Below, in pieces: positions 3,002-33,830 of a DNA stretch of 33,830 bases. The position numbers and the translations under genes were made by a program. The notes under the pieces were generated by a model that made no database searches, had not been told where the DNA came from, and saw only the letters and a program-made list of their open reading frames with translations. The stretch is taken from IMG/VR virus record IMGVR_UViG_3300010966_000050; one strand, written 5' to 3'. Numbering within the stretch: the first letter of the stretch is position 1; every line of letters begins with the position of its first letter. This DNA comes from a virus.

Positions 3002-6000
3002 ATGGCTACATTAACCGGAAAATTAGTTGCGGAAACATATAAAGCGTTATTAAAATTAATTGATAACGACGTAATTACCGGTTCAGAAAAGCAGATTTCG
3101 GACGGATTAGGAGGTTCAACCGGTGTATTTATTGACACTAATGGCTTTATGCGTGCATCAAAGTTCATTGTAACCGGAGGCAATTCAGGACAATTTTTAA
3201 AAGGTGATGGTTCGTTAGATGGTACAGGATATTTACCGGTTGGAACTACAACATCAGCTATCGCAGAAGGTTCTCGTTTATATTTTACACAAGCTCGTGT
3301 ACTTGAAACGGTATTAACAGGATTTGTTAGCACCGAAGGAACGGTCACGGCAGCCGATAGTATTTTATCAGCCATCAACAAAATTTGGTGGAACATTGAA
3401 AACGGTGGTGGAGGCGGTGGTGGTTATGTGCCATATACAGGTGCAACACAGAATTTAAATTTAGGTACATACGGACTTATTTCAGATTACATTCAATTCA
3501 ATTTGTCACCAACATCAATTCCAACAACAGCTGGAACGATGTCATGGAATGCAGCAGATGGAACGGCTGACCTTAAAATGGGAGGCGCAAACGTTACTTT
3601 GCAAGTGGGCCAAGAGGAGTTGGTACGTGTTGTAAATAAAACAGGTGCCAATTTATTAGAGGCAAATTATCAAGCAGTTAGGATTTCAGGAGCGCAAGGA
3701 AACAGATTAAAAGTGTCATTAGCCAAAGCAGATAATGATGCAAATTCTGCCGATACGATTGGATTGGTGACTGAAACAATAAACAACAATCAGGAAGGAT
3801 TTGTAACAGCGGTTGGATTAGTTAGAAACATTGATACGACAGGTGATTTACAAGGCGAAACGTGGGCAGATGGTGAACCGTTATATTTAAGTGCAACAAC
3901 AGCTGGTGTTATTACAAATATAAAACCACAAGCACCTGAACACGGGGTTCGTTTAGGTTACGTTGTACGTGCGCATCAAACACAGGGCCAAATTTATGTC
4001 AAGGTTGATAATGGGTATGAATTAGATGAATTGCACAATGTACTAATCACCGACCCATTAGATGAGGATGTATTGTTTTACGATGGTGTTGAAGGTCTTT
4101 GGATTAATAAGAATATTTATTCAGCAATCAATGCGACAGATGTAGGTAAGTCATTACTTGGCATTTTAAATGCTGAGGATACCATACCAGTAACGACAAA
4201 GCCAAGAGGCATTCGGATAAATGTTGACAATACGGTCAGCGCATTGGATGTCGGCACACAGGGATTTTTGCCATTTTACGATGAAACAGATTTTTACATT
4301 GATTCACCTGTATTTACAGATGGAACGCAGGTAATTATCGGTGATGATGTAGAGTTTGCCACAGGCAATAAATTATCAGTTGTTGGTAATTTGGCTGTTG
4401 ATGGTGCATACGGATACCATTTAGGAACGTATCAGGTTTTATACCGATATAACGCAACAGGTGAACTAAGATTTGGAACCAATGCAGCGAATGATTTTAC
4501 CACGTTTTTTGCCAATGGTATTGAACGTGCAAGATTAAACGCATCAGGATTTTTAGGTGTTGGGGTTTCAAATCCCGCATCAATGATACACGCAAAGGCC
4601 ACAACGGCATATCCTAAAATCATAATTGACAATGCCAGCGCATCAGGTGGTGGTATGTTTAGTGCATATCAGAATGGCACAGAAACGGCCTTATTCGGAG
4701 TTTCAGGTGCGTGGCTTATAGATAACACATCTGATGTTGCAATCGTGGCTGCACGGGCAGGTCAAGGTATTCAATATTTTACCAACGGCAGCACATCTGA
4801 AAAGATGGGATTAAATGCTGATGGTAATTTATATATTGGTCAAACACCTACGTTTGTCGCAGGCGCAACACAGGCGGTAGTGAGAGGTAAAACGGGTGCT
4901 GCATTCTTAGGTGTTCAGCATTACGATATGTCAATCAAAGGTTCAATCAACACATTCAATAGTGTGTTTCAGGTTGGAACATCGACATTTCATTCAGTTG
5001 CTGTAATCGTTGAAGATACAGAACGTGCAAGGTTTAATTCAGGTGGCCGTTTTTTATTAGGAACAACGACAGATAATACCACGGATATTTTTCAAGCTAA
5101 CGGCTCAATTATTGCCACAGCGATTAAGAAAACAGGCGGTACATCAGCGCAGTTTTTAAAAGCTGATGGTAGTGTGGATTCAACAGCTTACGGCACAGGT
5201 TCAGTTACATCAGTTGCTGCAACGGTTCCAACAGGTTTTGCCATTTCAGGTTCACCAATTACAACATCGGGAACTTTGGCCATTACTTTTGCATCAGGTT
5301 ACTCATTACCAACAACGGTTAAGCAATCCAATTGGGATGATGCGTATTCGTGGGTTGCTGCATTCCCAACACAAACAGGTAATTCAGGTAAATATTTAAC
5401 CACAGATGGTTCATCGTTAAGCTGGGGAACAATCGTTGCAGGTGTCAGTTCATTTAACACAAGAACAGGGGCCATTACATTAGTTAGTACGGATGTAATA
5501 AATGCATTGGGTTACACACCTGTGACTAATGCACGTACAATTACAATCAACGGAACAACACAAGATTTATCAGCCAATATTACGTTTACAACAGGCGGTG
5601 TCACATCGTTTAATACACGTGATGGGGCCGTAACATTAAGCAGTTCGGATGTAACCACAGCATTAGGATTTACACCTGTAACACAAGCACGTTCATTAAG
5701 CATAAACGGGCAGGCTTACGATTTGTCAGCTGATAGAAGTTGGACAATCACACCAAGTTCAGGGATGCGTAACGTAACAAGTTACACAGCAACGGCAGGA
5801 CAGACTACATTTACAATTACAGGTGGTTACACGGTTGGTTTACTTGATGTATTCCTGAATGGTGTGCGTATTCCTGAATCTGATTTTACAGCTACAAATG
5901 GAACTACGGTTGTATTTAATGAAGGTGTCAAGGCAGGTGATATTGTAACGGCTGTACTTTACACAGCAAGTGCAACATCGGGCATTACAGGTGCAGGAAC

Positions 6001-7567
6001 AGGAAATTATTTGGCTAAGTGGTCAGGAACCAGCGCAATTACCAATTCAATTTTATTTGACAATGGTACAAATGTTGGTATTGGTACAACGACACCAAGT
6101 GCTTTATTAGAAGTTAAAAATAGCACAAGTTCAATAATTAAAAATACTGCTGGCACACGTTCTCTTACATTAGAATCATATGCATCAGATTGGAATTATT
6201 TAGTTTCTGTTGGAAATAATTTAGGTTTAAATGTTAATGGAGCATTTTCAATAGTTCTCAATACTAATAGTGGCGAACGAATGAGAATAACGAGTACAGG
6301 AGCAGTAGGTATTGGAACAAGTTCACCAACTTTTGCAGATGGAACAGGATTACATATTAATAATAATTCAGGTTCATCACGTTTAAGATTAACCAATAAT
6401 ACTACGGGGGGAACTGCAACTGATGGTTCTGAATTTACTCTTGCTGGCAGTGATTTGTATGTCATTAATAATGAAAATGCAAATATGTTTTTTTTCACAA
6501 ATGGCAGCGAACGTTTAAGAATTACAGCAACAGGAAATTTAGGAATTAATACAACATCATTTAGTGGTTTTGGTTCAAGATTACAAATGATAATGAGAGG
6601 TGATTCAACATCAGGTGTATCTGTATTTCAAGTTATAAGTTATGATTCAGCATCATCTATGGCTTTATTTTCAGGGGCCAATTCATCTGATGCTCCTGCA
6701 ATTATATATCAAAGGGATTTAAGATTTGGTTCTGCTACTGATAGCGGATTAACAGGATACACAGACCGTATGCGAATTACTGCTGCTGGCAACGTAGGTA
6801 TTGGAACGACATCGCCAACATACAAATTTGAAGTTGCCAATGCAGGGCAAAATTTTATAAGATTTAGCAATACAGCATCAAGCGCAGATGTTGGTATATA
6901 TTTGACAAATACAGCTGTCAATGGTTATTTTGGGATAAACGCATCTGAGGCTTATATTTATACAGCAACAAGCCATCCAATATTATTCTATACTGCAACA
7001 GCAGAACGTATGAGAGTTGGAGTAAATGGTAATGTTTTAATTGGTTCATCAACAGATAGAGGAGGTTATACATTTCAAGTTTCAGGTATTATTGGTGCAT
7101 TTGGAAATGCAGGAAGTTTGTTATTCCAAAACAGAAATGGTACCAATACTTATGAATGGTATGCAGTTAACAGCACAATTTATGTTTATAGTAATTCATC
7201 ATCATCTAATATTTTGCAAATAAATGGTTCAAATGGTGCTTATTCAGCATTATCAGATGTTAATAAAAAGAAAGATTTTGAGCAGTCAAATTTAGGTTTA
7301 AATGAAATTTTACAATTAAAACCTACATTATACCGTTTTAAAACAGATGATAAATTTGCTAAAAAAGAACTTGGATTTATAGCGCAAGAAGTTAGAGAAT
7401 TTTTACCACAGGCATACGTTGAATCTGAGAAATTTATAGGATTAAATTATCAAGCAATTACGGCTGCATCTGTTAAAGCAATTCAGGAATTAGATTACAA
7501 ATTTGAAACGCAAGCCGAAAAAATAGCACGATTAGAAACAAGAGTACAACAATTAGAAGCCAAATAA
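3002..7567 (+). CDS. Tail fibre protein 1 (1521 aa) with a C-terminal S74 intramolecular chaperone domain
   Basis: Gly hinge GGGGGGG. Repeated ER.RI...GNVGIGT..P motifs. FLK.DGS motifs. A tandem 52-aa repeat. The C-terminus carries the S74 pattern SDVNKK..........LKPTLYRFK.......ELGFIAQEV plus a terminal coiled coil. Confidence 0.9.
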   Translation: MATLTGKLVAETYKALLKLIDNDVITGSEKQISDGLGGSTGVFIDTNGFMRASKFIVTGGNSGQFLKGDGSLDGTGYLPVGTTTSAIAEGSRLYFTQARVLETVLTGFVSTEGTVTAADSILSAINKIWWNIENGGGGGGGYVPYTGATQNLNLGTYGLISDYIQFNLSPTSIPTTAGTMSWNAADGTADLKMGGANVTLQVGQEELVRVVNKTGANLLEANYQAVRISGAQGNRLKVSLAKADNDANSADTIGLVTETINNNQEGFVTAVGLVRNIDTTGDLQGETWADGEPLYLSATTAGVITNIKPQAPEHGVRLGYVVRAHQTQGQIYVKVDNGYELDELHNVLITDPLDEDVLFYDGVEGLWINKNIYSAINATDVGKSLLGILNAEDTIPVTTKPRGIRINVDNTVSALDVGTQGFLPFYDETDFYIDSPVFTDGTQVIIGDDVEFATGNKLSVVGNLAVDGAYGYHLGTYQVLYRYNATGELRFGTNAANDFTTFFANGIERARLNASGFLGVGVSNPASMIHAKATTAYPKIIIDNASASGGGMFSAYQNGTETALFGVSGAWLIDNTSDVAIVAARAGQGIQYFTNGSTSEKMGLNADGNLYIGQTPTFVAGATQAVVRGKTGAAFLGVQHYDMSIKGSINTFNSVFQVGTSTFHSVAVIVEDTERARFNSGGRFLLGTTTDNTTDIFQANGSIIATAIKKTGGTSAQFLKADGSVDSTAYGTGSVTSVAATVPTGFAISGSPITTSGTLAITFASGYSLPTTVKQSNWDDAYSWVAAFPTQTGNSGKYLTTDGSSLSWGTIVAGVSSFNTRTGAITLVSTDVINALGYTPVTNARTITINGTTQDLSANITFTTGGVTSFNTRDGAVTLSSSDVTTALGFTPVTQARSLSINGQAYDLSADRSWTITPSSGMRNVTSYTATAGQTTFTITGGYTVGLLDVFLNGVRIPESDFTATNGTTVVFNEGVKAGDIVTAVLYTASATSGITGAGTGNYLAKWSGTSAITNSILFDNGTNVGIGTTTPSALLEVKNSTSSIIKNTAGTRSLTLESYASDWNYLVSVGNNLGLNVNGAFSIVLNTNSGERMRITSTGAVGIGTSSPTFADGTGLHINNNSGSSRLRLTNNTTGGTATDGSEFTLAGSDLYVINNENANMFFFTNGSERLRITATGNLGINTTSFSGFGSRLQMIMRGDSTSGVSVFQVISYDSASSMALFSGANSSDAPAIIYQRDLRFGSATDSGLTGYTDRMRITAAGNVGIGTTSPTYKFEVANAGQNFIRFSNTASSADVGIYLTNTAVNGYFGINASEAYIYTATSHPILFYTATAERMRVGVNGNVLIGSSTDRGGYTFQVSGIIGAFGNAGSLLFQNRNGTNTYEWYAVNSTIYVYSNSSSSNILQINGSNGAYSALSDVNKKKDFEQSNLGLNEILQLKPTLYRFKTDDKFAKKELGFIAQEVREFLPQAYVESEKFIGLNYQAITAASVKAIQELDYKFETQAEKIARLETRVQQLEAK
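5444..5755 (+). repeat. Tandem 156-nt (52-aa) repeat inside fibre 1
   Basis: VSSFNTRTGAITLVSTDVINALGYTPVTNARTITINGTTQDLSANITFTTGG aligns with VTSFNTRDGAVTLSSSDVTTALGFTPVTQARSLSINGQAYDLSADRSWTITPS. The units start at 5444 and 5600. Confidence 0.8.
7253..7564 (+). other. Peptidase_S74-type intramolecular chaperone / autocleavage domain of fibre 1
   Basis: The last 104 aa begin at Ser of SDVNKKK and include the conserved GFIAQE block and a terminal coiled coil. Confidence 0.75.
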
Positions 7568-7568
7568 G

Positions 7569-9503
7569 ATGTCAAAAAATCAAGATTTAGGGGAATTAAT
7601 TAATGGGATTAAGTCATTAGGCACTAATCAGCTAAATGCACCTGCATATACATCAGCCACGGCATTTACAGGCACAATTGCTGGTTATCTTGGATTTGAT
7701 ACAAGCGGAAATATTTTAACATCAGCAGGTGCGAGTCAGTGGATTACAACAGGTTCAAATATTTATTATAATACAGGTAATGTTGGTATTGGAATATCAA
7801 ATCCATCTGCAATTTTAAGTATTCAATCTGCTCAGCCTGATATTTCTGTAACATATACGGATTCAACATCTTACGGGAGATTAATTTTTAAGGAAAATAC
7901 AACAGAAAAAGGTGCATTTCAGTTTGTTGGTTCATCATATAGTGAAATAATAAGAAGAAATGCATTAGAAATTTATAATGTTGTTGCTGGACCTATTATT
8001 ATGTATAATAGTGGTGGATTAGAAAGATTAAGAATTTCAGCATCAGGTAATGTAGGTATTGGAACTAATAATCCATCTGCTAAATTACAAGTTGTTGGAA
8101 TTGCTGCAATAGGTCAATATACAAACGGAACATCAGTAATTGATGCATACGATAGTTTTGCTTTTTACGGTTGCAATACAGCATCAAATGGAATTGCTAT
8201 TGGTCCAAGCGGTACCGTATCAATAGGAAACACCAGCACAGCTTATAAATTAAATATTTCAGGTGATGTAAATATCACTGGAACATATCGTGTAAATGGA
8301 ACACCAATTGGAACAGGAGGCGGTGGGGTTTCAGGTTCAGGTTCCACAAATTATATTTCTAAATGGTCAGGAACAACGGCCCTAACAAATAGCGGTCTTT
8401 ATGAAGATGCTGGTAAATTATCATACGGAACTACATCGCCATTTTATCAATTAGATTGGAAAATTAAAAGTAATGTTCAAATTGGATTTGGATATGGTAC
8501 GGTATATTCTGCTGATGATAGTGCAGGATTAGTCGCACACGGTGGTGGTGGTATTTCTAACACAATTCCTATTGGATTTGCTGCGTCAACTTTCTTATTT
8601 TATATTGGATTTACAGAGGCAATGCGAATTAATACATCAAGAAATTTATTAATTAATACGACAGGTGGAATTTCAGGTGGTGGTGCAGTGCAGGTTGATG
8701 GTGATGTAAACGTAACAGGAACATTCAAAGTAAACGGTGTACAATACAGCACAGGTGGAGGCGGCGGTAATATATCAGGTGCAGGTACGGCAAATTATAT
8801 TCCAAAATTTACAGGTAGCACATCAATTGGTGATTCTGCAATGTGGGATAATAATAATTATAGCATTCACCTTGGAATGACAAGTTTTACGGGAACAGGT
8901 GGTGACCCTGAAAGGTACATTGCTATTTATGGGCCAAATAGTTCAGGTATTATTTTTAAAGGTGACACAAGCGATAGTCAGGCAACATCGTTTATTAAAC
9001 GCACAAATGGCGCGGGTAATTTAACTATGTATGATACCCGTGAAGTTTATTTGCAAGCAAGTTCATCAAATTATTTTAAAATGAACGGCAGCGGAGTAGG
9101 TATTAACGTACAGCCAACAGGAACACCTTATGTTTTTATGTTGCCAAATAATTATTTGCAGGCTGCAATTGCCTTTTCATGGTACACGTATTCCGATGGT
9201 CGTGTGAAAGGTGATATTGAGGAAATAGAATACGGCATTAATGAAGTGATGAAAATGAAGCCTGTTAAATACAAGCATTATTCATCGGTATTTGAAAACA
9301 ATAAATTTAATTTAGGTGATAAATACACCAATGAAATTGGATTTGTGGCACAGGACATGGACAAAATTATCAAAGAAGCGGTAAATCGTGGGAATGATTC
9401 TGAGTTGTGGTCATTAGACAAAAGCAAATTGATTCCTGTACTTGTGAAAGCGGTTCAAGAATTGAAAGCTGAATTAGATGAATTGAAACAAAATAATGCC
9501 TAA
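7569..9503 (+). CDS. Tail fibre protein 2 (644 aa) with a C-terminal S74 intramolecular chaperone domain
   Basis: ERLRISASGNVGIGTNNP motif. Two internal copies of GDVN(I/V)TGT(Y/F)(R/K)VNG....GGGG....NYI.K(W/F).G. The C-terminus reads SDGRVKGDIEEIEYGINEVMKMKPVKYKHY....EIGFVAQDM plus a coiled coil. Confidence 0.9.
   Translation: MSKNQDLGELINGIKSLGTNQLNAPAYTSATAFTGTIAGYLGFDTSGNILTSAGASQWITTGSNIYYNTGNVGIGISNPSAILSIQSAQPDISVTYTDSTSYGRLIFKENTTEKGAFQFVGSSYSEIIRRNALEIYNVVAGPIIMYNSGGLERLRISASGNVGIGTNNPSAKLQVVGIAAIGQYTNGTSVIDAYDSFAFYGCNTASNGIAIGPSGTVSIGNTSTAYKLNISGDVNITGTYRVNGTPIGTGGGGVSGSGSTNYISKWSGTTALTNSGLYEDAGKLSYGTTSPFYQLDWKIKSNVQIGFGYGTVYSADDSAGLVAHGGGGISNTIPIGFAASTFLFYIGFTEAMRINTSRNLLINTTGGISGGGAVQVDGDVNVTGTFKVNGVQYSTGGGGGNISGAGTANYIPKFTGSTSIGDSAMWDNNNYSIHLGMTSFTGTGGDPERYIAIYGPNSSGIIFKGDTSDSQATSFIKRTNGAGNLTMYDTREVYLQASSSNYFKMNGSGVGINVQPTGTPYVFMLPNNYLQAAIAFSWYTYSDGRVKGDIEEIEYGINEVMKMKPVKYKHYSSVFENNKFNLGDKYTNEIGFVAQDMDKIIKEAVNRGNDSELWSLDKSKLIPVLVKAVQELKAELDELKQNNA
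9192..9500 (+). other. Peptidase_S74-type intramolecular chaperone domain of fibre 2
   Basis: The last 103 aa begin at SDGRVKG and show the same block order as the fibre 1 C-terminus. Confidence 0.75.
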
Positions 9504-9934: not shown

Positions 9935-10298
9935 AAATGTTGAACCATCTGAAATTACCTACGCATGGGTAATTAGTCAGCTTGATTGCGCACCATCTTA
10001 TGAGGGTATGCAGGATTATGTTGTCACCGTTCATTGGCGGTACACAGCATCGTTTGAAACTTATTTCACCGATATTTACGGTGCGCAAAGTTACAGCGAA
10101 GTTGCTGGCCCTGATTTCATTCCTTACGCAGATTTGACTGAGGATGTTGTCATCGGATGGTTAGAGTCATCATTGGATGTACCACAGATGCAAGCAGGTT
10201 TGGCACAATCAATTGAAAATTTGATTAACCCACCTGTAATTGTTTTACCATTACCTTGGGTAAATCCTGAACCAACGGAGCCGATAGTAAATATTTAA
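9921..10298 (+). CDS. Hypothetical structural-module protein
   Basis: ATG start with a 14-nt overlap on the upstream gene and a TAATG overlap on the downstream gene. No family recognised. Confidence 0.6.
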   Translation: MSNYRNVEPSEITYAWVISQLDCAPSYEGMQDYVVTVHWRYTASFETYFTDIYGAQSYSEVAGPDFIPYADLTEDVVIGWLESSLDVPQMQAGLAQSIENLINPPVIVLPLPWVNPEPTEPIVNI

Positions 10299-10747
10299 TG
10301 GCAGTTATATCCGGAAATCATTTAGTCGTTTACGATAACGATATGGCACTAGGGCATTCTACGTCCTGTGCTATTTCGTTTAATATGAATGTTGCAGAAG
10401 CGACAAGCAAAGCGTCTGAAGGATGGAAAGAAGTTTTAGCCGGAACAAGACAGGCAACCATTAAAGTTGAGGCATTAGTTGATTATTCACAGACCCAAAA
10501 TTATAATGAATGGGTTACACAGATAATCACCCGAAAATATACCAAATGGGTATTTAAAGATGCAACTTCTTTTTATTTAGGAGGCGGTTATGTTTTAAGC
10601 TGTGAACAGGTGGCTGATTTTGAAGACGTGGACAAATATTCAATTGAAATACAAATTGATGGCCGAGTTTACGTTGAACCAAGACTGCCTTGGAATTTAG
10701 TTTTCACTAATTGGGAAAATGTAAATATCAACTGGGAAAATGTGTAA
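10298..10747 (+). CDS. Major-tail-protein paralog A (TP901-1-like tube protein fold)
   Basis: LGHSTSCAISFNMNVAEATSKASEGWKEVLAGTRQATIKVEALVDYS aligns with the equivalent stretch of the next gene. Confidence 0.6.
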   Translation: MAVISGNHLVVYDNDMALGHSTSCAISFNMNVAEATSKASEGWKEVLAGTRQATIKVEALVDYSQTQNYNEWVTQIITRKYTKWVFKDATSFYLGGGYVLSCEQVADFEDVDKYSIEIQIDGRVYVEPRLPWNLVFTNWENVNINWENV

Positions 10748-10796: not shown

Positions 10797-11207
10797 ATGG
10801 CAACATCAGGAGTATTTAACGGAACGAACCTTTTATTAAAAGTTGAGGACGTAGTTATCGGACACACAACATCGTGTACATTATCAATCAGCCACGATAT
10901 CGCTGACGCAACAACTAAGGATTCCGAAGGTTGGTCAGAAGGTATTTCAGGCTTGCGTTCAGGTGAAATTTCATTTGACGGCTTAGTTGATTATACTGAT
11001 GCAACAAACGTAATTGATTTGTTCGATATGATTGCAAACCGTACAATCGTTACTTGTAAGTTTGGAACGGTTGCAGCTGGCGATACTGTTCTTTCTGCTG
11101 AGGGATATTTAACTTCATTAGAGCAAACAGGTGAAATGGAAGCGTCTGTAACTTACAGCGGTTCAATCACTTTGACAGGAGCAATCAGCAAAGCAACAAA
11201 CCCGTAA
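10797..11207 (+). CDS. Major tail (tube) protein, TP901-1-like
   Basis: The pattern IGHTTSCTLSISHDIADATTKDSEGWSEGISGLRSGEISFDGLVDY is typical of TP901-1-family major tail proteins. The gene has its own -7 box and a strong terminator. It lies upstream of the chaperone and tape measure genes. Confidence 0.8.
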   Translation: MATSGVFNGTNLLLKVEDVVIGHTTSCTLSISHDIADATTKDSEGWSEGISGLRSGEISFDGLVDYTDATNVIDLFDMIANRTIVTCKFGTVAAGDTVLSAEGYLTSLEQTGEMEASVTYSGSITLTGAISKATNP

Positions 11208-12023: not shown

Positions 12024-14189
12024 ATGGCAGAGAACATACTAAAACTTCTAATAACCGGTGATGCAGCCGATTTAGATAAAGAACTTTCGAGTGTTGACAA
12101 ACGGTTACAAAAACTTGGTGAACAGACTAAACGTCTTGGTGAACGTCTATCATTAAGTTTGACTGCTCCATTAGCAATTGCAGGAACGGCAGCTGTAAAA
12201 CTTGCTTCTGACTTTGACGAGTCAATGAACAAGGTAAATGTTGCCTTTAAAGATTCAGCAAAAGAGGTTGTTGCTTTCTCAAAAACTACGTTAAAATCCT
12301 TTGGTATTGCACAAGGTACTGCATTAGATATGGCAGCTCAGTTTGGCGATATGAGTACGTCAATGGGTTTAAGTACAGGTCAAGCATCAAAATTATCTAC
12401 TGGTTTAGTTGGATTAGCAGGTGATTTAGCATCTTTTAAAAACATGAACATTGAGGAGGTTACGACTGCCTTAAATGGTGTTTTTACAGGTGAAACTGAA
12501 TCATTAAAAAGATTAGGTGTTGTAATGACCGAGGACAACCTGAAAAGGTATGCAATGTCTCAAGGTATTAAAGCTAATATTAAAGACTTAGACGAAAGTC
12601 AAAAAGTGTTATTGCGTTACAATTATGTAATGGCAAAGACAGCAAATGCACACGGAGATTTTGAAAGAACAGGAGGCGGTGCTGCAAACCAAATGCGTCA
12701 ATTTAGTGAATCATTAAAAGAATTAGGAACACAATTCGGGCAAACCGTTTTACCTGCTGTAACTGCCGTTATTAAGGTACTTAATAGCATGCTTGCAAAA
12801 ATTGGTGAATTATCCCCTGCTACAAAAACATTTGTAATGATAGCCGGTGGTATTGCTGCACTTACTGGTCCTTTATTATATTTGGCAGGTTCAGTTATTC
12901 CTAAAATGGTTGTTGCAATGAAATTGCTTAATGCTCAAATGTTAAAATTTGGCACGACTATTGGAAAGGCAGGAATGTTTGGAATACTTACCGGATTGTT
13001 AGGTGTTGCAGCTACGGCAGCTTATGATTATGCCGAAGCAATGACACCAAATGCAAAGTTTGCAGCACAACAAAAAGATGATGCAGATGCTATTCGTGAG
13101 AAAAATAAAGAGATTTATAAAACGATTGAATATTTAAAACAACAAAAACAAAATACTGCAACTACTGCTAAAACAGGACCAAATGCGCAACAAGGAACAT
13201 TTGGTGGTGGTTTTCAAGCACAAATTGACCAACAAGTCAGAGTTTTAAAATATAATCGTCAAAAATTAAAAGAAGCAGAAGCGAAAGCTGCAAAAGATTT
13301 AGCTGGTAGTGGCAACCTTGCTGATTTAAAACCTACTGGACCAAAAGGAAATGGTCAAGCAACAAAAGAGCAATTTGGTTTAGCCGGTGAAATTCAAACA
13401 TTAGCGGATAAAATTGCTGATGCTCGTAAAGAAACACTTGCCTTAAAAAATGAATTTTTAAACCTTAGATGGCCATCATTAGGTGACCCATTAAAGGCAT
13501 TAGATTTTAATGTTGATAAAATTACAGAAAAGATTAAAACACCTTTTCAAATAATGAATCAACAAATTTCTGCAAATGCTAAGGTTCAGCAAGAAGAATT
13601 AACAATGTTACAAGATTCATATAAAACCTATATGGGCAATGCTCAGGTTTTAGCTGATGGTCTTGGTCAGATGTTTTCTAATTTAGGTGCAGGATTAATT
13701 GATTCATTAGGATTAGCAAAAGATGGAATCGAAGGAATTATTGCAGCAATGGCTAAAATGTTGTTACAACTAGGAATTGGATTGCTACAAGAGGCAATTA
13801 TCAATAAAGCAAAACAGGCATTCTTGCGTAAAACAGCAATGACAAATGCAATCGTTGCCGGTTCATCTGCGGCAGCTTCAATGGGTCCAGCAGGTGTAAT
13901 TGCCTTGCCGGGTCTTATCGCCGGTGCTATGGGTACCGTAGGTGCTGCATTAGCAGGTGTTCAGGCTTTTGCAAAAGGTGGTATTGTTAGTGGCCCTACA
14001 ATGGGTTTAGTTGGTGAGTATCCGGGAGCAAAATCAAATCCGGAAGTAATTGCACCGTTAAACAAATTGCAAGGAATGCTAGACCAAGGGAACCAAGGTG
14101 GTATATTAGGTGGTGAATTTAAAGTACGTGGTCAAGACCTTTTATTAGTAATGCAACGTGCAGAAAAAGAACGTAACAGAATAGGATAA
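12024..14189 (+). CDS. Tail tape measure protein (721 aa)
   Basis: Position after the G/G-T pair. The TP901-type core reads VAFSKTTLKSFGIAQGTALDMAAQFGDM. The protein has Ala/Gly-rich hydrophobic segments and long coiled coils. Confidence 0.9.
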   Translation: MAENILKLLITGDAADLDKELSSVDKRLQKLGEQTKRLGERLSLSLTAPLAIAGTAAVKLASDFDESMNKVNVAFKDSAKEVVAFSKTTLKSFGIAQGTALDMAAQFGDMSTSMGLSTGQASKLSTGLVGLAGDLASFKNMNIEEVTTALNGVFTGETESLKRLGVVMTEDNLKRYAMSQGIKANIKDLDESQKVLLRYNYVMAKTANAHGDFERTGGGAANQMRQFSESLKELGTQFGQTVLPAVTAVIKVLNSMLAKIGELSPATKTFVMIAGGIAALTGPLLYLAGSVIPKMVVAMKLLNAQMLKFGTTIGKAGMFGILTGLLGVAATAAYDYAEAMTPNAKFAAQQKDDADAIREKNKEIYKTIEYLKQQKQNTATTAKTGPNAQQGTFGGGFQAQIDQQVRVLKYNRQKLKEAEAKAAKDLAGSGNLADLKPTGPKGNGQATKEQFGLAGEIQTLADKIADARKETLALKNEFLNLRWPSLGDPLKALDFNVDKITEKIKTPFQIMNQQISANAKVQQEELTMLQDSYKTYMGNAQVLADGLGQMFSNLGAGLIDSLGLAKDGIEGIIAAMAKMLLQLGIGLLQEAIINKAKQAFLRKTAMTNAIVAGSSAAASMGPAGVIALPGLIAGAMGTVGAALAGVQAFAKGGIVSGPTMGLVGEYPGAKSNPEVIAPLNKLQGMLDQGNQGGILGGEFKVRGQDLLLVMQRAEKERNRIG

Positions 14190-20950: not shown

Positions 20951-21691
20951 ATGGCAAAAATTACAATTAAAAATAGGTACGCAACAGTGCCTAATGATTT
21001 GCTTAATTCAGATAAAATTTCACTAAAAGCAAAAGGATTGTATGCGTTTATTCAATCAAAACCTGATACATGGGATTTTAGTGTTGACCGTATCTCAAAA
21101 CAAATCTTTGAAGGCACAACCGTAGTTGCATCAGCTTTACGAGAATTAGAATCGTTTGGATATTTGCGCAGAAAAAGGTTTCAGAATGCTTCCGGATTTT
21201 GGTTAGTTGAGTACGAACTAAACGAGTTTGGCAATCCTGACGTAGAAAATCCTAGACAGGAAAACCTAGTATCAGGAAATCCTAGTCAGGAAAATCCTGT
21301 ATCAGGAAAACCTGCTAATATTAGTAAACAAGATTATAGTAAAAAAGATATTAATAAAACAATTATAGTAAAAAGTAATAGGGATTTGCTTTTTGAAAAA
21401 TGGTTGGCTTATAAGAAAGAGAAAAAACAAACTTATACGCAAACCGGCATTAAGTCATTATATGAAAAATGGGCTAAATTCACAGACGAGGAATTAGCAC
21501 TAATAATTGAACAATCAATATCTAATAATTGGGCAGGATTATTTGAATTGAAAAATAACGTTAAAAATTCAGCACCGATGAAAGGCAAGATTCAATCGGC
21601 TTATGAAAACATTAGTATTGCAGGCAACAACATTATAAAACAAATTGAAGATGGTACCTACGTTAATCCATTCGCCACAGGCAACAAGTAA
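20951..21691 (+). CDS. Replication initiator / replisome organiser with an N-terminal winged-helix domain
   Basis: The N-terminus YATVPNDLLNSDKISLKAKGLYAFIQSK...WDFSVDRISKQI.....VASALRELESFGYLRRKR is typical of phage replication-organiser winged-helix domains. Internal iterons are present. Confidence 0.65.
   Translation: MAKITIKNRYATVPNDLLNSDKISLKAKGLYAFIQSKPDTWDFSVDRISKQIFEGTTVVASALRELESFGYLRRKRFQNASGFWLVEYELNEFGNPDVENPRQENLVSGNPSQENPVSGKPANISKQDYSKKDINKTIIVKSNRDLLFEKWLAYKKEKKQTYTQTGIKSLYEKWAKFTDEELALIIEQSISNNWAGLFELKNNVKNSAPMKGKIQSAYENISIAGNNIIKQIEDGTYVNPFATGNK
21243..21314 (+). repeat. Five iteron-like direct repeats CAGGAAA(A)(T/C)CCT(A)G inside the initiator gene: candidate origin
   Basis: AGAAAATCCTAG at 21244, CAGGAAAACCTAG at 21257, CAGGAAATCCTAG at 21273, CAGGAAAATCCTG at 21287 and CAGGAAAACCTG at 21303. 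The spacing is 13-16 nt. Confidence 0.6.
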
Positions 21692-22394
21692 TTTAAGCAC
21701 AAGTGAGTTGCAAATCTATAACGCAACTAAATCCCCAATTTTAAGGACGATTGAGCCTACTGACAAGACTAAAATAGCAATGGAGGTGTATTTGTTAGCC
21801 AAGGTGAAATTAGGTCTTAATTCGATAAGTTCAGAAGAAGAACACGCAACCGTATCAATATTGCTTGATGACCTTGAAAATTTTAACGGATTAACAAAGG
21901 ATGAAATAATCTTAGCCACTAAGAAAGGTTTGAACGGTGAATATTTAGGACCAAAGGACAATCAGGTATTTTTCAATTCATCAAACTTTGTGCAATGGGT
22001 CAGAAAGTACGATGACAATAAACGTTCTGTTTTAAGCAAGATAAGTAACGCAAAGCAAGAAGACGAGCCAAAGCCAGAACCGGACGAAGCTACAAAGAAA
22101 GCACAGGCAATACAGATAGCAAATATGTATGCTGAACAGCTACACAAATGCAAATCAGTAGGGGAAACATTTAAATGGGCAGGTGGATTAAATTTCTTAT
22201 ATGACTTTGCAAAGAAATACGGGCTACTGGTAATGACCGAGGAGCAAAGGACTAAGTTAATAGACAAATTTAAAGGTCAGCACACTAACGAAGCAGAATT
22301 TGTTGCAGCTTGCAAAACACAGGCATATAAAGATTTTATTATCAGTTTAGTTGACTTTAATGCGAGATTTGACGAAAATGGGAATTATATTTAA
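21651..22394 (+). CDS. Hypothetical replication-module protein; start uncertain (ATG 21651 or ATG 21780; the track uses TTG 21645)
   Basis: Long open frame following the initiator gene. No NTPase motif seen. Confidence 0.6.
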   Translation: MVPTLIHSPQATSNLSTSELQIYNATKSPILRTIEPTDKTKIAMEVYLLAKVKLGLNSISSEEEHATVSILLDDLENFNGLTKDEIILATKKGLNGEYLGPKDNQVFFNSSNFVQWVRKYDDNKRSVLSKISNAKQEDEPKPEPDEATKKAQAIQIANMYAEQLHKCKSVGETFKWAGGLNFLYDFAKKYGLLVMTEEQRTKLIDKFKGQHTNEAEFVAACKTQAYKDFIISLVDFNARFDENGNYI

Positions 22395-23111: not shown

Positions 23112-23411
23112 ATGGAAAATCACTTAAAAATTTACGGATTTACAGACAATTCAATTGCATCATTAGATGCACAAAGTCTATCAAATGTTTTTGCTGCCTA
23201 TGCTGAAAACTGTGCAGGTGACGAAATTATGGAAATCGGTTTTAACAAAAATTCAGGATACGTTTACATTGCATTAGAAAACGGCATACAGATTGCTTCT
23301 TGCTTTGGTCATAGCGTTGTATTTGTTACAACAGATTTTAATGATGGCGAAGAATATTTTTCAGGCACATACGATGGAGCGTTAGACAACTTAGCAAAGC
23401 TGTCGCATTAG
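23112..23411 (+). CDS. Hypothetical strongly acidic protein (99 aa)
   Basis: ATG preceded by the leader motif. Hand count gives 14 D/E against 3 K/R. Confidence 0.65.
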   Translation: MENHLKIYGFTDNSIASLDAQSLSNVFAAYAENCAGDEIMEIGFNKNSGYVYIALENGIQIASCFGHSVVFVTTDFNDGEEYFSGTYDGALDNLAKLSH

Positions 23412-23414
23412 TCT

Positions 23415-23636
23415 ATGCTAGCGATTAAAATAGCTGTTACAGCAATAACTATATGTTTAGCCATTATACTTCTTTACAGTAAAGAACAACAGCAAATTCA
23501 AGAGAATTACCGGCCATTTGTAAAATACACAAACGATGATGCAGATTCTTATCACGAAGATTTTGACTCAAGTTATTTTTACAATGGTTGTTTAGCAAAT
23601 ACATTTAAATCAAATCACAAGTGCAATGGAAACTAA
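23415..23636 (+). CDS. Hypothetical membrane protein (73 aa, N-terminal TMD)
   Basis: The sequence MLAIKIAVTAITICLAIILLY forms a TMD. Confidence 0.6.
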   Translation: MLAIKIAVTAITICLAIILLYSKEQQQIQENYRPFVKYTNDDADSYHEDFDSSYFYNGCLANTFKSNHKCNGN

Positions 23637-25800: not shown

Positions 25801-25925
25801 TTGGAATAGGATTATTAAAAAACAAGGCTGAGGTTTTACCTGCAATTACAATTAAGGTAAACCCTAATTCGTGGTATATATCGTTCAGATGGATAATATT
25901 TGAATTTAGGATTTTCAGCCTATGA
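25797..25925 (+). CDS. Micro-ORF (42 aa) with an LPAIT motif, absent from the track
   Basis: ATGA overlaps at both ends. The sequence is MIGIGLLKNKAEVLPAITIKVNPNSWYISFRWIIFEFRIFSL. Confidence 0.4.
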   Translation: MIGIGLLKNKAEVLPAITIKVNPNSWYISFRWIIFEFRIFSL

Positions 25926-26032
25926 AAACTGACGAAAGATTAATTTATGAAGCTATTTTTATCGGACTGGTAGAAGTAGCTTTTATCATTTATATGACCG
26001 TTAAAATTTTAAAGCAAAAAAATAACCAATGA
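25922..26032 (+). CDS. Small membrane protein (36 aa), absent from the track
   Basis: ATGA overlaps at both ends. The sequence is MKTDERLIYEAIFIGLVEVAFIIYMTVKILKQKNNQ. Confidence 0.4.
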   Translation: MKTDERLIYEAIFIGLVEVAFIIYMTVKILKQKNNQ

Positions 26033-26601
26033 ATGCAGAATTAATAAAGATTGGCGATATAAAGTCAAATCCAAATAATCCGAGAATTATCAAGGATGAC
26101 AAATTTCAGAAGTTAGTAAAGTCAATCAAAGACTTCCCTAAAATGCTTGAACTGCGTCCTATTGTTGTGAACGATGATATGGTTGTTCTTGGTGGTAATA
26201 TGCGATTGAAGGCTTGCAAAGAAGCAGGATTAAAAGAAGTGCCTGTAATTAAAGCATCTGAATTAACTGATGACGAGCAGAAGCAATTTATTATCAAGGA
26301 CAATGTTGGATTTGGAGAGTGGGATTGGGATATGTTAGCAAACGAGTGGGAAGCAGATGAATTGGTTGATTGGGGTTTAGACTTATGGCATAAAGGTTTA
26401 GAAGTAAACGAAATGGATGAAAGTCAAATTGATTTAGACCAAGAATTTGACCCAATTGGTTTATCATCCGGATTGCAACGTGTTGTGTTTATTTTCGATG
26501 GTTCAGAAGAAGCTGAAAGTTGGTTAGGACAACACCCTGAGTTACCACTTAAAAAAATGAATAATGCATGGCAAATCGACCTATCTACCCAATCTATATA
26601 A
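26029..26601 (+). CDS. ParB/Srx N-terminal-domain protein with no methyltransferase domain
   Basis: The ParB N-terminal domain reads IKIGDIKSNPNNPR....F..LVKSI........RPIVVNDDMVVLGGNMRLKACKEAGLKEVPV. It is followed by an acidic Trp-rich linker, GEWDWDMLANEWEADELVDWGLDLW. Confidence 0.8.
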   Translation: MNAELIKIGDIKSNPNNPRIIKDDKFQKLVKSIKDFPKMLELRPIVVNDDMVVLGGNMRLKACKEAGLKEVPVIKASELTDDEQKQFIIKDNVGFGEWDWDMLANEWEADELVDWGLDLWHKGLEVNEMDESQIDLDQEFDPIGLSSGLQRVVFIFDGSEEAESWLGQHPELPLKKMNNAWQIDLSTQSI

Positions 26602-27098
26602 TTTCAAAAGGCAGATACGAGAAAACTTTGTCTGCTGATATTTTTGAGAAAGCTGGATTGAATTACTATGTAGCTGTCGAACCACAGGAATATGACTTGT
26701 ATGTTAAAAAACTTGGGGAAAAAAGAATATTAAAATTGCCATTTTCAAATTTAGGTTTAGGTAGCTATCCGGCTCGTAATTACTGCTGGGAACATGCAAA
26801 AAATTTAGGTCATAAATATCATTGGCTGTTTGATGATAACATTCAATATTTTTCAAAGTGGATTAACGGCAAGCGAAAAAGAATTGACACAATAGGTGAA
26901 GCATTAATGTATGTTGAGCATTTTGTGATTAAAAATAAAGTTACAATTGGAGGTTTTGAGGAACCAAATTTTGTAGTTAAGCCACCAAAGAAAGCATTTA
27001 AAATTAATTGCCACGTTTACTCGGCAATGCTAATTAAAAACGATATTCCATTTAGATGGCGATTAAAATATAATGAAGACGTTGATTTATGTTTATAG
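26568..27098 (+). CDS. GT-A-fold glycosyltransferase-like protein, N-terminal 176 codons, ending at an in-frame TAG
   Basis: Motifs PIYIISKGR (first strand), WLFDDNI (DxD-like) and YNEDVDLCL (ED.DL motif of GT2-like enzymes). The gene overlaps the ParB gene by 34 nt. Confidence 0.65.
   Translation: MANRPIYPIYIISKGRYEKTLSADIFEKAGLNYYVAVEPQEYDLYVKKLGEKRILKLPFSNLGLGSYPARNYCWEHAKNLGHKYHWLFDDNIQYFSKWINGKRKRIDTIGEALMYVEHFVIKNKVTIGGFEEPNFVVKPPKKAFKINCHVYSAMLIKNDIPFRWRLKYNEDVDLCL
27096..27098 (+). other. Single in-frame TAG separating 26568-27095 from the same-frame continuation to 27335
   Basis: 26568 and 27141 are both 0 mod 3. The codons at 27099-27140 (gta ctg cac aac ggt ggt agc aca gca agt tgt ata tat tat) contain no stop. 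Confidence 0.7.
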
Positions 27099-27140
27099 GT
27101 ACTGCACAACGGTGGTAGCACAGCAAGTTGTATATATTAT

Positions 27141-27335
27141 ATGGCTGATAAAGTAAGTACGGCAGCAAAGATGAAAGGTGGAAATCAAACTGAACTTTAT
27201 AAAGGAAACGCACCTGAAAAGAATCTTTTAAAAGCAAAAATGCTTGAAGCTGTTTGGCCACAATATGCAAAAACAGTAATTAGATTTAACAGGCATCATC
27301 ATTTAGTAGATTGGAAAGTGTTTAAAAGGAAATAA
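27141..27335 (+). CDS. 64-aa ORF in frame with the glycosyltransferase-like gene; probably its C-terminal part
   Basis: It shares the frame of 26568-27098. It contains KMKGGNQTELYKGN and RHHHLVDW. I found no independent promoter box or leader motif. Confidence 0.5.
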   Translation: MADKVSTAAKMKGGNQTELYKGNAPEKNLLKAKMLEAVWPQYAKTVIRFNRHHHLVDWKVFKRK

Positions 27336-27393: not shown

Positions 27394-27777
27394 ATGGCAA
27401 AGGCAGATTCAACAATCATAAAAAAACGGGCAATGCTTGTAGCATTAGAGAAATCACTTGGTGTGGTTACTTCTGCATGCGCCTCAGTTGGCATTACTCG
27501 TGTAACCCATTATGAATGGATGAAGAATGATGCTGAATACAAGGAGGCTGTACACGATATTACCGAGATGGCAATTGATTTTGTTGAGAGCAAACTATAC
27601 AAGCAAATTTCAAAGGAAAATACAACAGCCACCATATTCTACCTAAAAACCAAAGCCAAGCACAGGGGATATGTAGAACGTACAGAGATTCAGCACGAAG
27701 GCAATTTAGGTTTAGCATCTAAAATATCTCAGGACGCTAAAAACAAGATTGAGCAAATACTTGAAAATGAGTATTAA
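27394..27777 (+). CDS. terS: Terminase small subunit (HTH type)
   Basis: KKRAMLVALEKSLGVVTSACASVGITRVTHYEWMKNDAEYKEAV is typical of HTH-type small terminases. The gene lies immediately upstream of the large subunit. Confidence 0.75.
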   Translation: MAKADSTIIKKRAMLVALEKSLGVVTSACASVGITRVTHYEWMKNDAEYKEAVHDITEMAIDFVESKLYKQISKENTTATIFYLKTKAKHRGYVERTEIQHEGNLGLASKISQDAKNKIEQILENEY

Positions 27778-29125
27778 TGAAATCATAAAAGAAAAATGCG
27801 AATCCTCACTTTTGTTTTTTACTCGTTATCTTTTTAAAGAAAACACAGGAAACAAATTTGAGGTTGCACCTTTCCACGTTACATTGGCTGAAACACTTGA
27901 AGCTGTGAATCGTGGTGAAATTAAACGGTTAATAATTAACATACCACCAAGATACGGTAAAACTGAGATTGCTGTAAAAATGTTTATAGCTTGGTCCTTA
28001 GCTAAAAATCCATCATCAAAGTTTATTCACCTTTCGTATTCTGATGCACTGGCATTAGACAACTCATCGTTGACTCGTGATTACGTTCAAAGCGACACGT
28101 TTCAAGACTTGTGGCCTGTTCATTTAAAGAAGGACACGCAAGGTCAGAAAAAGTGGTACACCGAGCAAGGTGGTGGTGTTTATGCAACATCATCAGGTGG
28201 TGCAATTACAGGTTTTGGAGCAGGCACAGGTGGGGCAATTATTATAGATGACCCATTAAAACCGGATGATTCAAGTTCAGATATAAAAAGGAACTTTATT
28301 AATAACCGGTACAATACAACTATTCGTTCTCGTGTAAATGACCGAGATGTGCCTATCATTGTTATTATGCAACGTCTGCACGAGGATGATATGACCGGAT
28401 TCTTATTGCAGAACGGTAGCGGAGAGGAATGGACGCATTTAAAGCTATCTGCATTAAACGAAAATAACGAGCCACTATGGCCAAGTAAACATTCATTCGC
28501 TGAATTAGAGCAAATACGTCAAGCAAGCCGATATACTTTTTCAGGGCAGTATATGCAAGAACCTGCACCGCAAGAAGGTGGAGAATGGCGCAAGGATTGG
28601 TTTAAAATTATTGAGCCGGCACACTTACCTGCCGATATTAATTGGGAAATGTACATAGATGGTGCCTACACCGAAAACACTAAGAACGACCCAACTGGTA
28701 TACAGATTTCGGGAAGCTGTGATGGCAACCTGTATATTTTAAAGTCAATTGATAAATACCTTGAAATGCCTGAATTGAAAAATTTTATCAGTAGCTTTAT
28801 TAACGGTGTTGGGGTTGACGTTACTCAAATATTGATTGAGCCAAAAGCATCCGGAAAATCTTTGGCACAATTACTACACCGAGAAACTAGACTAAACATC
28901 AGCGAACTGAATACAAATTTTGTTAGGTATTCTAAAATTGAAAGAGCAAGAGCATCATCACCATTTATTGAAGGTGGTAGAGTTTATTTGGTAAAAGATA
29001 ATTGGAATGAAGCGTATTTACAGCAGGTGAGTACGTTTCCAAATGCAAAGCACGATGAGCATATTGACATAACGTCCTATGCCATCGAACGTAATTTAAT
29101 TCAGCCTGCTTTTTATGTAGTTTAA
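27767..29125 (+). CDS. terL: Terminase large subunit
   Basis: Walker A-like PPRYGKTE and Walker B-like AIIIDDP. The C-terminal RNase-H-like nuclease blocks are MYIDGAYT and KHDEHIDITSYA. I prefer the ATG at 27767 to the TTG at 27749. Confidence 0.9.
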   Translation: MSINEIIKEKCESSLLFFTRYLFKENTGNKFEVAPFHVTLAETLEAVNRGEIKRLIINIPPRYGKTEIAVKMFIAWSLAKNPSSKFIHLSYSDALALDNSSLTRDYVQSDTFQDLWPVHLKKDTQGQKKWYTEQGGGVYATSSGGAITGFGAGTGGAIIIDDPLKPDDSSSDIKRNFINNRYNTTIRSRVNDRDVPIIVIMQRLHEDDMTGFLLQNGSGEEWTHLKLSALNENNEPLWPSKHSFAELEQIRQASRYTFSGQYMQEPAPQEGGEWRKDWFKIIEPAHLPADINWEMYIDGAYTENTKNDPTGIQISGSCDGNLYILKSIDKYLEMPELKNFISSFINGVGVDVTQILIEPKASGKSLAQLLHRETRLNISELNTNFVRYSKIERARASSPFIEGGRVYLVKDNWNEAYLQQVSTFPNAKHDEHIDITSYAIERNLIQPAFYVV

Positions 29126-33573: not shown

Positions 33574-33810
33574 ATGGGAAAATTATTAATGAGCAGAACG
33601 GTATTTGATGGCAAGGTCTATCATAAAGCCGGCAATATTGTTGAGGTGAAACCGGAAGTTGAAAAGTGGTATTTGGAAAAGGGATTTGCTTATAAGTTTG
33701 ATGATAAAATCATTGAGGAATTAGAGGAAATTGAGGAGGTTGAGGTAATGCCTGAGCCGGAAGTGATTGAGACAAAAGAAGAAAAAAAAGTTTATCGTAA
33801 AAGAAAATAA
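33574..33810 (+). CDS. Hypothetical head-module protein with an acidic Glu-rich C-terminus (78 aa)
   Basis: I prefer the ATG at 33574. The sequence is MGKLLMSRTVFDGKVYH....EELEEIEEVEVMPEPEVIETKEEKK. The stop lies inside the terminal repeat and equals positions 33-35. Confidence 0.6.
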   Translation: MGKLLMSRTVFDGKVYHKAGNIVEVKPEVEKWYLEKGFAYKFDDKIIEELEEIEEVEVMPEPEVIETKEEKKVYRKRK

Positions 33811-33830
33811 CGATGCACCAAATTAAAATA
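33776..33830. repeat. Second copy of the 55-bp terminal repeat
   Basis: Exact match to 1-55. It contains a truncated second copy of the head-tail connector gene start (ATG at 33813). Confidence 0.9.

Follow-up and report, generated by a model that had tools for sequence, protein, structure and literature searches.

A ParB-like protein and a TAGT-family glycosyltransferase form a conserved gene pair near phage packaging genes, with an amber codon interrupting the transferase gene in one viral genome

The IMG/VR virus record IMGVR_UViG_3300010966_000050 (33,830 nucleotides, nt; hereafter the window, by which we mean this whole stretch of DNA) contains a gene for a ParB-like protein that overlaps a gene for a glycosyltransferase of the TAGT family, the latter interrupted by one in-frame TAG codon. 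We conclude that the locus is probably a two-gene, ParB-assisted DNA glycosyltransferase cassette transcribed with the packaging genes, of which the window holds a copy that, as written, is most likely inactivated by a C>T change. A functional partnership between ParB and TAGT is very likely and, judging from the sequences, we lean towards DNA as the target of the TAGT. Its family profiles and structural matches show that the second gene codes for a GT-A enzyme, and DNA glycosylation in phages is established for its family.

The ParB-like and TAGT genes overlap directly upstream of the terminase genes

The locus comprises the following features, given with the evidence for each:

26029..26601, + strand: ParB-like gene, 190 residues (Pfam ParB_N, PHROG ParB and ParB-methyltransferase families, AlphaFold2 (AF2) model, Foldseek)
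26568..26601, + strand: overlap of the ParB and TAGT genes, 34 nt (open reading frame (ORF) coordinates; overlap also in the related contigs L001-L006)
26568..27335, + strand: GT-A glycosyltransferase gene of the TAGT family, 255 codons with the interruption at codon 177 (PF20691, PHROG 842, homologues, Foldseek)
27096..27098, + strand: in-frame amber TAG in place of an invariant Gln codon (alignment; codon comparison with relatives)
27099..27335, + strand: 3' part of the TAGT gene beyond the TAG, 78 codons, which holds a 64-codon ATG ORF at 27141-27335 (codon comparison, isoelectric point (pI))
27394..29125, + strand: terminase genes directly downstream of the cassette, small 27394-27777 and large 27749-29125 (PHROG terminase small subunit; homologues of the large terminase, TerL)

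These limits agree with the initial annotation, which had described a ParB gene with a Trp-rich acidic linker, a following gene that begins 34 nt inside it and carries three GT-A motifs, and a TAG after which the same frame stays open. The Trp-rich acidic stretch GEWDWDMLANEWEADELVDWGLDLW lies in the ParB ORF, the motifs PIYIISKGR, WLFDDNI and YNEDVDLCL lie in the TAGT ORF, and past the TAG the frame is open through the ATG at 27141 and ends at a TAA (27333-27335). Among shuffled copies of the window, 78 or more stop-free codons followed only 109 of 51,331 stops (0.2%), so that the open frame past the TAG exceeds what chance would give. The 34-nt overlap suggests translational coupling of the two genes. 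Scans for Rfam families, promoters or terminators, and repeats around the locus gave nothing exceeding background.

The 255-residue read-through product matched the Pfam family PF20691 (TAGT) over the complete profile (positions 1-205 of 205) with 114.5 bits against a cut-off of 27.5 (E 8e-33), whereas the 176-residue ORF alone scored 97.5 bits over profile positions 1-178; the match to PHROG 842 (beta-glucosyl-HMC-alpha-glucosyltransferase, where HMC is hydroxymethylcytosine; E 7e-33) likewise gained from the part beyond the TAG. Since this part raises the TAGT score and completes the profile, the homology spans the stop. The best 120 of 1,662 TAGT homologues are all single proteins of 248-274 residues, which is the outcome of a check proposed with the initial annotation, namely that homologues be single polypeptides of about 250 residues. 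Homologues from Aeromonas, Vibrio and Tenacibaculum phages are 35-37% identical over the full length.

One member of the TAGT family is the T2/T6 enzyme, from which glucosyl-hydroxymethylcytosine receives its second glucose; the fold predicted for the family is GT-A (PMC13216743; PMC13390438). The residues invariant among the homologues, R16, D89-D90-N91 and E170-D171-x-D173, agree with the R...DDD...ED(Y/F) signature described in GT-A DNA glycosyltransferases of phages (bioRxiv 10.1101/2023.12.21.572611). A search of the PDB with the TAGT profile found no relative of solved structure. An intact homologue that is 99% identical to the window TAGT (P0001) was modeled with AF2 (pLDDT 76, pTM 0.78), and the best Foldseek matches of this model in the PDB were mimivirus R699, ppGalNAc-T2, LARGE1 and heparosan synthase (E 1e-5 to 4e-4, TM ~0.5). 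The GT-A character assigned in the initial annotation from motifs was thus recovered both by the family profiles and by the structural comparison. The window protein accordingly shows the GT-A fold and the R...DD(D/N)...ED active-site pattern of a TAGT, and what it lacks is an uninterrupted coding sequence of about 250 residues, because of the TAG at codon 177. The whole enzyme is strongly basic (pI 9.6, charge +18); the part beyond the TAG (pI 9.95) is both its most conserved and its most basic part.

The ParB ORF matched Pfam ParB_N at residues 4-93 (33.4 bits, cut-off 26.3). In the AF2 model (pLDDT 77), an N-terminal ParB/CTPase-fold domain (residues 1-95) is followed by the Trp-rich acidic two-helix linker (residues 96-120), an unstructured stretch and a small C-terminal domain. 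Foldseek placed CTP- or CDP-bound Myxococcus and Caulobacter ParB on top (E 1e-6) and also returned Noc and KorB. The protein is conserved over its whole length in 25 homologues, with G55-G56-N-M-R59 invariant, so that the N-terminal CTPase-fold domain has its GxxR motif, and the C-terminal domain (about residues 135-185) shows the conserved pattern EFDPIG..QRVVFIFDGxEEAESW..KKxNxAWQ. Hallmarks of a partition ParB are absent: TIGR00180 gave 25 bits against a cut-off of 58.45, HTH_ParB gave no match, the model contains no helix-turn-helix unit after residue 115, and family scans of the window ORFs turned up no ParA-like ORF as a partner. The N-terminal half has a pI of 8.7 and the C-terminal half a pI of 4.05 and a charge of -19, which is complementary to the +18 of the TAGT.

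A query consisting of the linker and C-terminal part of ParB matched only 105 clusters in 1.84 billion representatives; most matches of the C-terminal part were to the C-terminal ends of proteins about 190-250 residues long, and the Trp-rich linker matched further ParB-like proteins. ParB with its linker aligned to the N-terminal 140 residues of the phrog_498 ParB-methyltransferase fusions (E 3.5e-30). The statement in the initial annotation that ParB with such a linker is fused to methyltransferases in phages therefore holds, as also documented in a survey that found many ParB-methyltransferase fusions in phages, with an enrichment in prophage regions, and made no mention of glycosyltransferases (Kaljevic et al. 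2025, PMC12704722). Compared with the PHROG 498 fusions, in which the enzyme is fused to ParB, the window encodes its enzyme as a separate overlapping gene for a glycosyltransferase, and the C-terminal 60 residues of its ParB belong to a narrow family. The proposal that a methyltransferase partner was replaced here by a glycosyltransferase goes too far as a statement on evolution and holds only as an analogy.

Upstream of ParB, some of the closest relatives have a 106-residue ORF with weak Pfam matches to 5'-nucleotidase and TruD (L005 1346-1666; L097 2142-2462). Its site is occupied in the window by short ORFs (25922-26032).

The ParB-TAGT pair is conserved across phages

The neighborhood of TAGT was compared in 246 viral contigs that represent three TAGT subfamilies: 86 of the window type and, sampled from IMG/VR, 80 of the type of phi jlb1, a cultured phage of Lactobacillus gasseri, and 80 of the type of contig L092. 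ParB lies adjacent to and upstream of TAGT in 236 of the 246, distributed as follows:

Window-type: ParB adjacent upstream in 85/86; overlapping pairs 73/85
phi jlb1-type: ParB adjacent upstream in 77/80; overlapping pairs 72/77
L092-type: ParB adjacent upstream in 74/80; overlapping pairs 40/74

All six contigs closest to the window (L001-L006) have ParB directly preceding TAGT with a window-like overlap, and a count restricted to window-type loci has ParB directly upstream of TAGT in 86 of 87. A TerL of one family follows the pair in 207 of the 246 loci; the small terminase differs between loci, as do the other neighboring genes. This TerL belongs to a very common family, so that proximity to terminase genes is by itself nothing unusual. 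The flanking genes are mosaic and the ParB-TAGT pair persists. It also occurs in contigs of metagenome-assembled genomes (MAGs) labelled Melioribacter, Anaerolineaceae and Bacteroidota. One of these, the Melioribacter-labelled L091 (34-2726), has in order a ParB-like gene, a 256-residue ORF, ParB and TAGT; by eye the 256-residue ORF looked TGT/DpdA-like on account of an LDSGAF motif, but sequence searches of Pfam and the PDB gave no match to back this assignment.

Additional sugar genes accompany the pair in many loci. An NAD-dependent epimerase/dehydratase gene stands right after TAGT in 32 loci, a DXD glycosyltransferase gene lies between ParB and TAGT in 13, tandem TAGT paralogues occur in 19, a GT-B-like gene in 19 (recognized in an alignment by eye, with no Pfam match) and a GT2 gene in 7. 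Such cassettes were seen among L178-L257 (e.g. L188 1886-2719; L240 3909-4556) and in L032, L050 and L080. These extra genes suggest that related cassettes build different or longer glycans. Upstream of the TAGT of L093 there is a small ORF with a methyltransferase-like NPPW motif, again noted by eye and with no Pfam match.

The initial annotation had proposed an uncharacterized ParB-guided modification pair. The pairing is conserved far beyond the window genome and comes with a shared adaptor (see below). The DNA substrate of the pair is a matter of interpretation, and a role of ParB near DNA-modifying enzymes is not without precedent (PMC13229309).

A module shared by ParB and TAGT points to a link between them

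A TAGT clade of the type found in Vibrio and Aeromonas phages is very abundant (at least 600 stretches in IMG/VR) and is always accompanied by a module of about 75 residues, EWxGMPEF...IIVRFEtEqDy...KTKSIWHPF, which corresponds to no Pfam family. Of 80 loci of this type, 70 encode the module in a small ORF of its own that overlaps the start of TAGT; in the other 10, which include Aeromonas phage 65, Vibrio phage 1.076.O and Kuja, it is fused to the N-terminus of TAGT. In L092-type loci it is the C-terminal domain of ParB. A hidden Markov model (HMM) of the module, with TAGT residues trimmed, matched 70 of 72 L092-type ParBs at about residues 120-200 with E down to 3.6e-13 and had no other match below 1e-3 among 10,280 ORFs; reciprocally, positions 130-212 of the ParB HMM matched the small stand-alone ORFs. 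The module is located in L263-L342, in L008 (5674-6000) and in L095 (4578-5000). Since the C-terminal domain of L092-type ParB is the module that is fused to TAGT elsewhere, there is a Rosetta-stone link between the C-terminal end of ParB and TAGT.

The in-frame TAG replaces an invariant glutamine codon

The residue aligned to the TAG is Gln in 19 of 19 aligned homologues, and in 80 loci the codon at this site is CAA in 52, CAG in 27 and TAG only in the window. The nearest relatives, L004-L006 (96% nucleotide identity), have CAG, and the more distant L001-L003 have CAA. By these comparisons, the TAG is one C>T transition that turned the Gln177 codon CAG into amber, an ordinary point nonsense change. 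Beyond the TAG, the codons differ from those of L001 by 28 synonymous and no non-synonymous changes and from those of L004-L006 by 5-6 synonymous and no non-synonymous changes. Since no non-synonymous change has accumulated downstream, the interruption is very young or not real: it is either a very recent change or a base-call or minor-population variant. As written, the TAG deletes the last 79 residues, and therefore the TAGT of the window is most likely inactive.

The same allele was sought elsewhere with an exact 32-mer, with a degenerate codon-level pattern (IMG/VR and JGI metagenomes) and by look-up of the exact protein and gene position in an index, and none was found. An independent second amber is present in window-type TAGT genes: Trp95 is changed from TGG to TAG in L020 (10001-10771) and L021 (1520-2290), which come from two samples, and this is the only one of 771 nt that differs from the intact gene of L019. 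Counted over the 246 loci, disruption events number 1 for TAGT, 2 or 3 for ParB and 1 for TerL, which served as a control. Because ParB and TerL are similarly rarely disrupted, no selection is claimed. The ParB cases include L098 (6272-7011), where a frameshifted ParB stands beside an intact TAGT that is 100% identical to that of phi jlb1, and L109 (5238-7017), where ParB has an insertion or rearrangement beside an intact TAGT.

Apart from a recent nonsense mutation, three explanations of the TAG were weighed. It could stem from an error in sequencing or assembly, or from a minor variant in a population that really has CAG and an active 255-residue enzyme; this would account for the one-base difference from the closest relatives, for the 78 codons beyond the TAG with no non-synonymous change and for the absence of the allele from every other collection searched, and it would have parallels in comparable lone disruptions of ParB and TerL in metagenomic contigs such as the frameshift in L098. 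Consensus assemblies nevertheless rarely carry substitution errors, and the Trp95 amber shared by L020 and L021 indicates that real nonsense alleles of TAGT circulate, so we hold an error or variant to be a serious but doubtful explanation. The allele could also be a selected loss of function, by which the phage would escape a host defence that recognizes glycosylated DNA, comparable to Brig1. There is a precedent in that all 29 Brig1 escapers of T4 had point mutations in the alpha-gt transferase gene (PMC13216743), and the two ambers arose independently in near-identical genes, but the lack of an excess of TAGT disruptions over those of neighboring genes makes selection improbable. A recurrent selected TAGT knock-out was therefore kept only as a minor rival.

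The third explanation is that the TAG is read through or suppressed and that the 176- and 255-residue products together form a regulatory device. Its attraction is that the site is Gln in the homologues and the part beyond the TAG is intact; TAG to Gln is the commonest natural amber reassignment. Against this, no tRNA gene was found in the window and no Rfam element was found at the locus, TAG at this codon occurs in 0 of about 280 IMG/VR relatives and in no JGI metagenome contig, and the other amber allele replaces Trp rather than Gln. If TAG is read as sense, the only genes lengthened are TAGT and one adjacent pair of small genes, and no long gene has an in-frame TAG. Four other genes end in TAG, at 9934, 11997, 16123 and 23411, as the initial annotation had listed in arguing against recoding, and given the lack of a tRNA and of any other recoded gene, genome-wide recoding or a suppressor tRNA was rejected. 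Regulated readthrough or a split gene, also considered in that annotation, is not borne out by a single C>T at an invariant Gln codon whose allele recurs in no other assembly searched, and we consider it highly improbable. A separate gene for the part beyond the TAG was not seen in any homologue, which includes the conserved 64-residue gene that the initial annotation had named as contrary evidence.

The lengthened small-gene pair consists of an ORF at 23112-23411, which ends in TAG, and an ORF at 23415-23636, which starts one codon on in the same frame. It looks like chance adjacency, because the relative L004 has two separate genes here, of 99 and 73 residues.

The genome surrounding the cassette

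Positions 1-55 and 33776-33830 of the window are identical and the related contig L001 aligns over the end-to-start junction, which identifies the window as a complete genome of about 33.8 kb that assembled as a circle. Its layout is siphophage-like according to Pfam, PHROG and NCBIfam, with genes for terminase, portal, MuF, protease, capsid and connectors, for a pair of large fibre proteins, two paralogous major-tail proteins and a tape measure, and for a metallophosphoesterase; three of the structural genes were assigned by synteny with L001 alone. Further genes comprise ERF, YqaJ, a replication-initiator-like protein, VRR-NUC and DUF3310. The sole ORF of more than 200 residues with no family match (21645-22394) lies just downstream of the replication-initiator-like gene. 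A DNA-level search for close relatives among cultured phages found none.

Two features of the tail module were noted. The paralogous major-tail genes (10298-10747 and 10797-11207, both PHROG 1407) are adjacent and stand after the fibre genes and before the tape measure, an unusual order for a siphophage tail module. The consecutive fibre or spike proteins (3002-7567, 1,521 residues; 7569-9503, 644 residues) each have a C-terminal Peptidase_S74 intramolecular chaperone domain.

Comparison with known systems

T-even phages make hydroxymethylcytosine before replication, and an alpha- or beta-glucosyltransferase supplies the acceptor for the TAGT. The T2/T6 enzyme belongs to the same Pfam and PHROG family as the window TAGT over the whole profile, and both are GT-A. 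The window differs in having neither the hydroxymethylcytosine synthesis nor the alpha- and beta-glucosyltransferases of the T-even phages and in that its gene is interrupted, and T6-type genes are not among the matches of its TAGT at E 1e-5. For solitary TAGTs, present in 288 of 753 phages, the function has been called undefined (PMC13216743).

A second point of comparison is provided by clusters of the type of Nonlabens phage P12024L. They share with the window a small marine siphophage backbone (ERF, YqaJ, DUF3310, VRR-NUC) and a TAGT a few genes before the terminase, but they have Tet_JBP immediately upstream of TAGT and no ParB, whereas the window has ParB in that place and no dioxygenase. 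The P12024L locus itself reads TET_JBP-TAGT-N6/N4 methylase, with a TAGT 28% identical to that of the window. L261 and L262 have the order TET-x-TAGT, and TET-bearing marine phages have TET, a 151-residue protein and TAGT upstream of the terminase, with no ParB. Clusters that combine a TET/JBP dioxygenase (5-methylpyrimidine dioxygenase, 5mYOX) with glycosyltransferases have reportedly been reconstituted by Burke in 2021 and by Pyle in 2024.

ParB-dependent phage thymine dioxygenases, in which ParB is needed only on double-stranded DNA, were published in 2026 (O'Toole et al., PNAS; PMC13229309). By their description, these ParBs have the layout of the window protein, with an N-terminal domain, a helical segment, an unstructured linker and a C-terminal domain, no helix-turn-helix and Myxococcus and Caulobacter ParB as closest structures; both stand beside a DNA-modifying-type enzyme and near terminase genes. 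The partner there is a dioxygenase, whereas in the window it is a glycosyltransferase and a cognate 5-methylpyrimidine dioxygenase is missing. Thymidine hypermodification genes of the amino-acid and kinase types are reported to accompany the ParB-dependent dioxygenases; glycosyltransferases are reported mostly for dioxygenases of the ParB-independent class (PMC13229309).

The nearest cultured counterpart is phage phi jlb1 (jlb1_024, jlb1_025), in which the order ParB-TAGT (with an 11-nt overlap)-TerS-TerL-portal is like that of the window. Unlike the window virus, it is a temperate myophage of Firmicutes; its TAGT is 26% and its ParB N-terminal domain 39% identical to those of the window, and its ParB C-terminal region is unlike that of the window and 50 residues longer. 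Just upstream of its ParB (L096 11351-12745) lie 1.4 kb with no annotated genes and no long ORF, containing a tRNA-Glu at 12231-12304.

Both protein families, and ParB beside DNA-modification genes, are already known, and solitary TAGT or GT-A genes and their co-occurrence with ParB or terminase are mentioned in passing in the literature. In the literature that we searched, we did not find a description of ParB-TAGT as a conserved dioxygenase-less unit, of its fixed place before the terminase, of its expansion with sugar genes or of the shared adaptor.

The probable target of the glycosyltransferase

In the model that we favor, the C-terminal domain of ParB would dock the strongly basic transferase, and its N-terminal nucleoside triphosphate-binding domain would engage or open DNA, by analogy with ParB in the thymine dioxygenase systems that depend on it. 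Glycosylation would follow late in infection, on phage DNA that has been replicated and is about to be packaged or is being packaged, and the additional glycosyltransferases and sugar epimerase of related cassettes may lengthen or vary the glycan.

Several observations weigh against a cassette that acts in this way on DNA. Scans of the window ORFs with Pfam, PHROG and NCBIfam, which covered the ORFs of about 60 residues or more, all but a few small ones, detected no TET/JBP dioxygenase, thymidylate-synthase-type hydroxymethylase, DNA methyltransferase or second glycosyltransferase. The TET enzyme of P12024L gave no tblastn match in the window, and a TET HMM built from 121 sequences and run with filters off found nothing in the six-frame translations of the window and of all loci, including each of the 246; Pfam Tet_JBP does detect the P12024L enzyme, but no window ORF. 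Within the reach of sequence profiles, this upholds the statement of the initial annotation that the genome has no base-hydroxymethylating enzyme, and none of the enzymes that could supply a pyrimidine in hydroxylated or glycosylated form (TET/JBP, dCMP/dUMP hydroxymethylase, alpha/beta-GT) was found in the window. No acceptor-supplying enzyme was found within 7-10 kb of TAGT in the 246 related loci, and the 38-kb genome of phi jlb1 has no annotated dioxygenase, hydroxymethylase or methylase. Because the window genome and the related loci encode no TET/JBP dioxygenase or hydroxymethylase, no DNA acceptor can be named. GT-A contigs that have no 5mYOX or ThyS neighbor, about 65% of those mined, were held by the authors who described them to be less obviously DNA-related (bioRxiv 10.1101/2023.12.21.572611), and DNA action in the ParB-linked TAGT clades is something that we infer from sequence. 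The adaptor link is also uneven. The C-terminal domain of window-type ParB resembles the adaptor weakly (E 0.003 to about 1 with an HMM of the L092 C-terminal domain; hhalign probability 58%, E 1e-4): 77 window-type ParBs are the top matches, in the right place but sub-threshold, with the ParB of the window itself not reported among them, and phi jlb1-type ParB has a C-terminus of a different kind. Finally, the AF2 models of the TAGT homologue and of ParB are of moderate confidence.

The main rival is that the glycosyltransferase modifies a protein of the virion or a polymer of the host envelope, with ParB as its neighbor because of an unrelated role, for example in packaging or gene regulation. 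It would explain why no source of hydroxymethyl-pyrimidine was found in the genome and why the cassette lies among morphogenesis genes, as does the TAGT homologue of Vibrio phage 1.076.O, located between portal and head-morphogenesis genes; it also agrees with the Foldseek matches, which are protein and polysaccharide GT-A enzymes, and with the structural neighbors of phage GT-A enzymes, which include teichoic-acid and capsid glycosyltransferases (bioRxiv 10.1101/2023.12.21.572611). On the other hand, the characterized member of the family acts on DNA (PMC13216743), other TAGTs stand beside a TET/JBP dioxygenase or a DNA methylase, and the enzyme is very basic. Its partner has a ParB/CTPase fold, and related phage proteins typically carry a fused DNA methyltransferase or activate DNA dioxygenases; the adaptor domain would tie this ParB physically to the enzyme. 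Taken together, this makes a non-DNA target rather unlikely. A variant of the DNA-directed cassette is that ParB and TAGT are self-sufficient and glycosylate DNA with no hydroxymethyl-pyrimidine precursor, ParB presenting a canonical base or another position of the DNA to the transferase by means of its docking domain and its NTP-dependent engagement of DNA; to this we assign a still lower probability.

Implications

For annotation, the TAGT gene of the window is best entered as a single gene that is disrupted and may be a pseudogene; neither two genes nor a case of recoding should be annotated. To our knowledge, all known glycosylation of phage DNA depends on an enzyme that has first given a pyrimidine a hydroxymethyl or hydroxyl group. 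The cassette described here keeps the glycosyltransferase and has a ParB-like protein in the dioxygenase's stead, and its place beside the packaging genes is conserved in phages of several bacterial phyla. The adaptor common to ParB, stand-alone genes and TAGT fusions offers a concrete interaction to test, for which phi jlb1 provides a cultured system. If the target is not DNA, a large share of the solitary TAGT genes annotated as DNA glucosyltransferases would be mis-named. If it is DNA, either an unrecognized acceptor exists or ParB enables a new reaction, and should ParB and TAGT prove self-sufficient, this would be a new DNA-modification chemistry in hundreds of uncultured phages and in phi jlb1.

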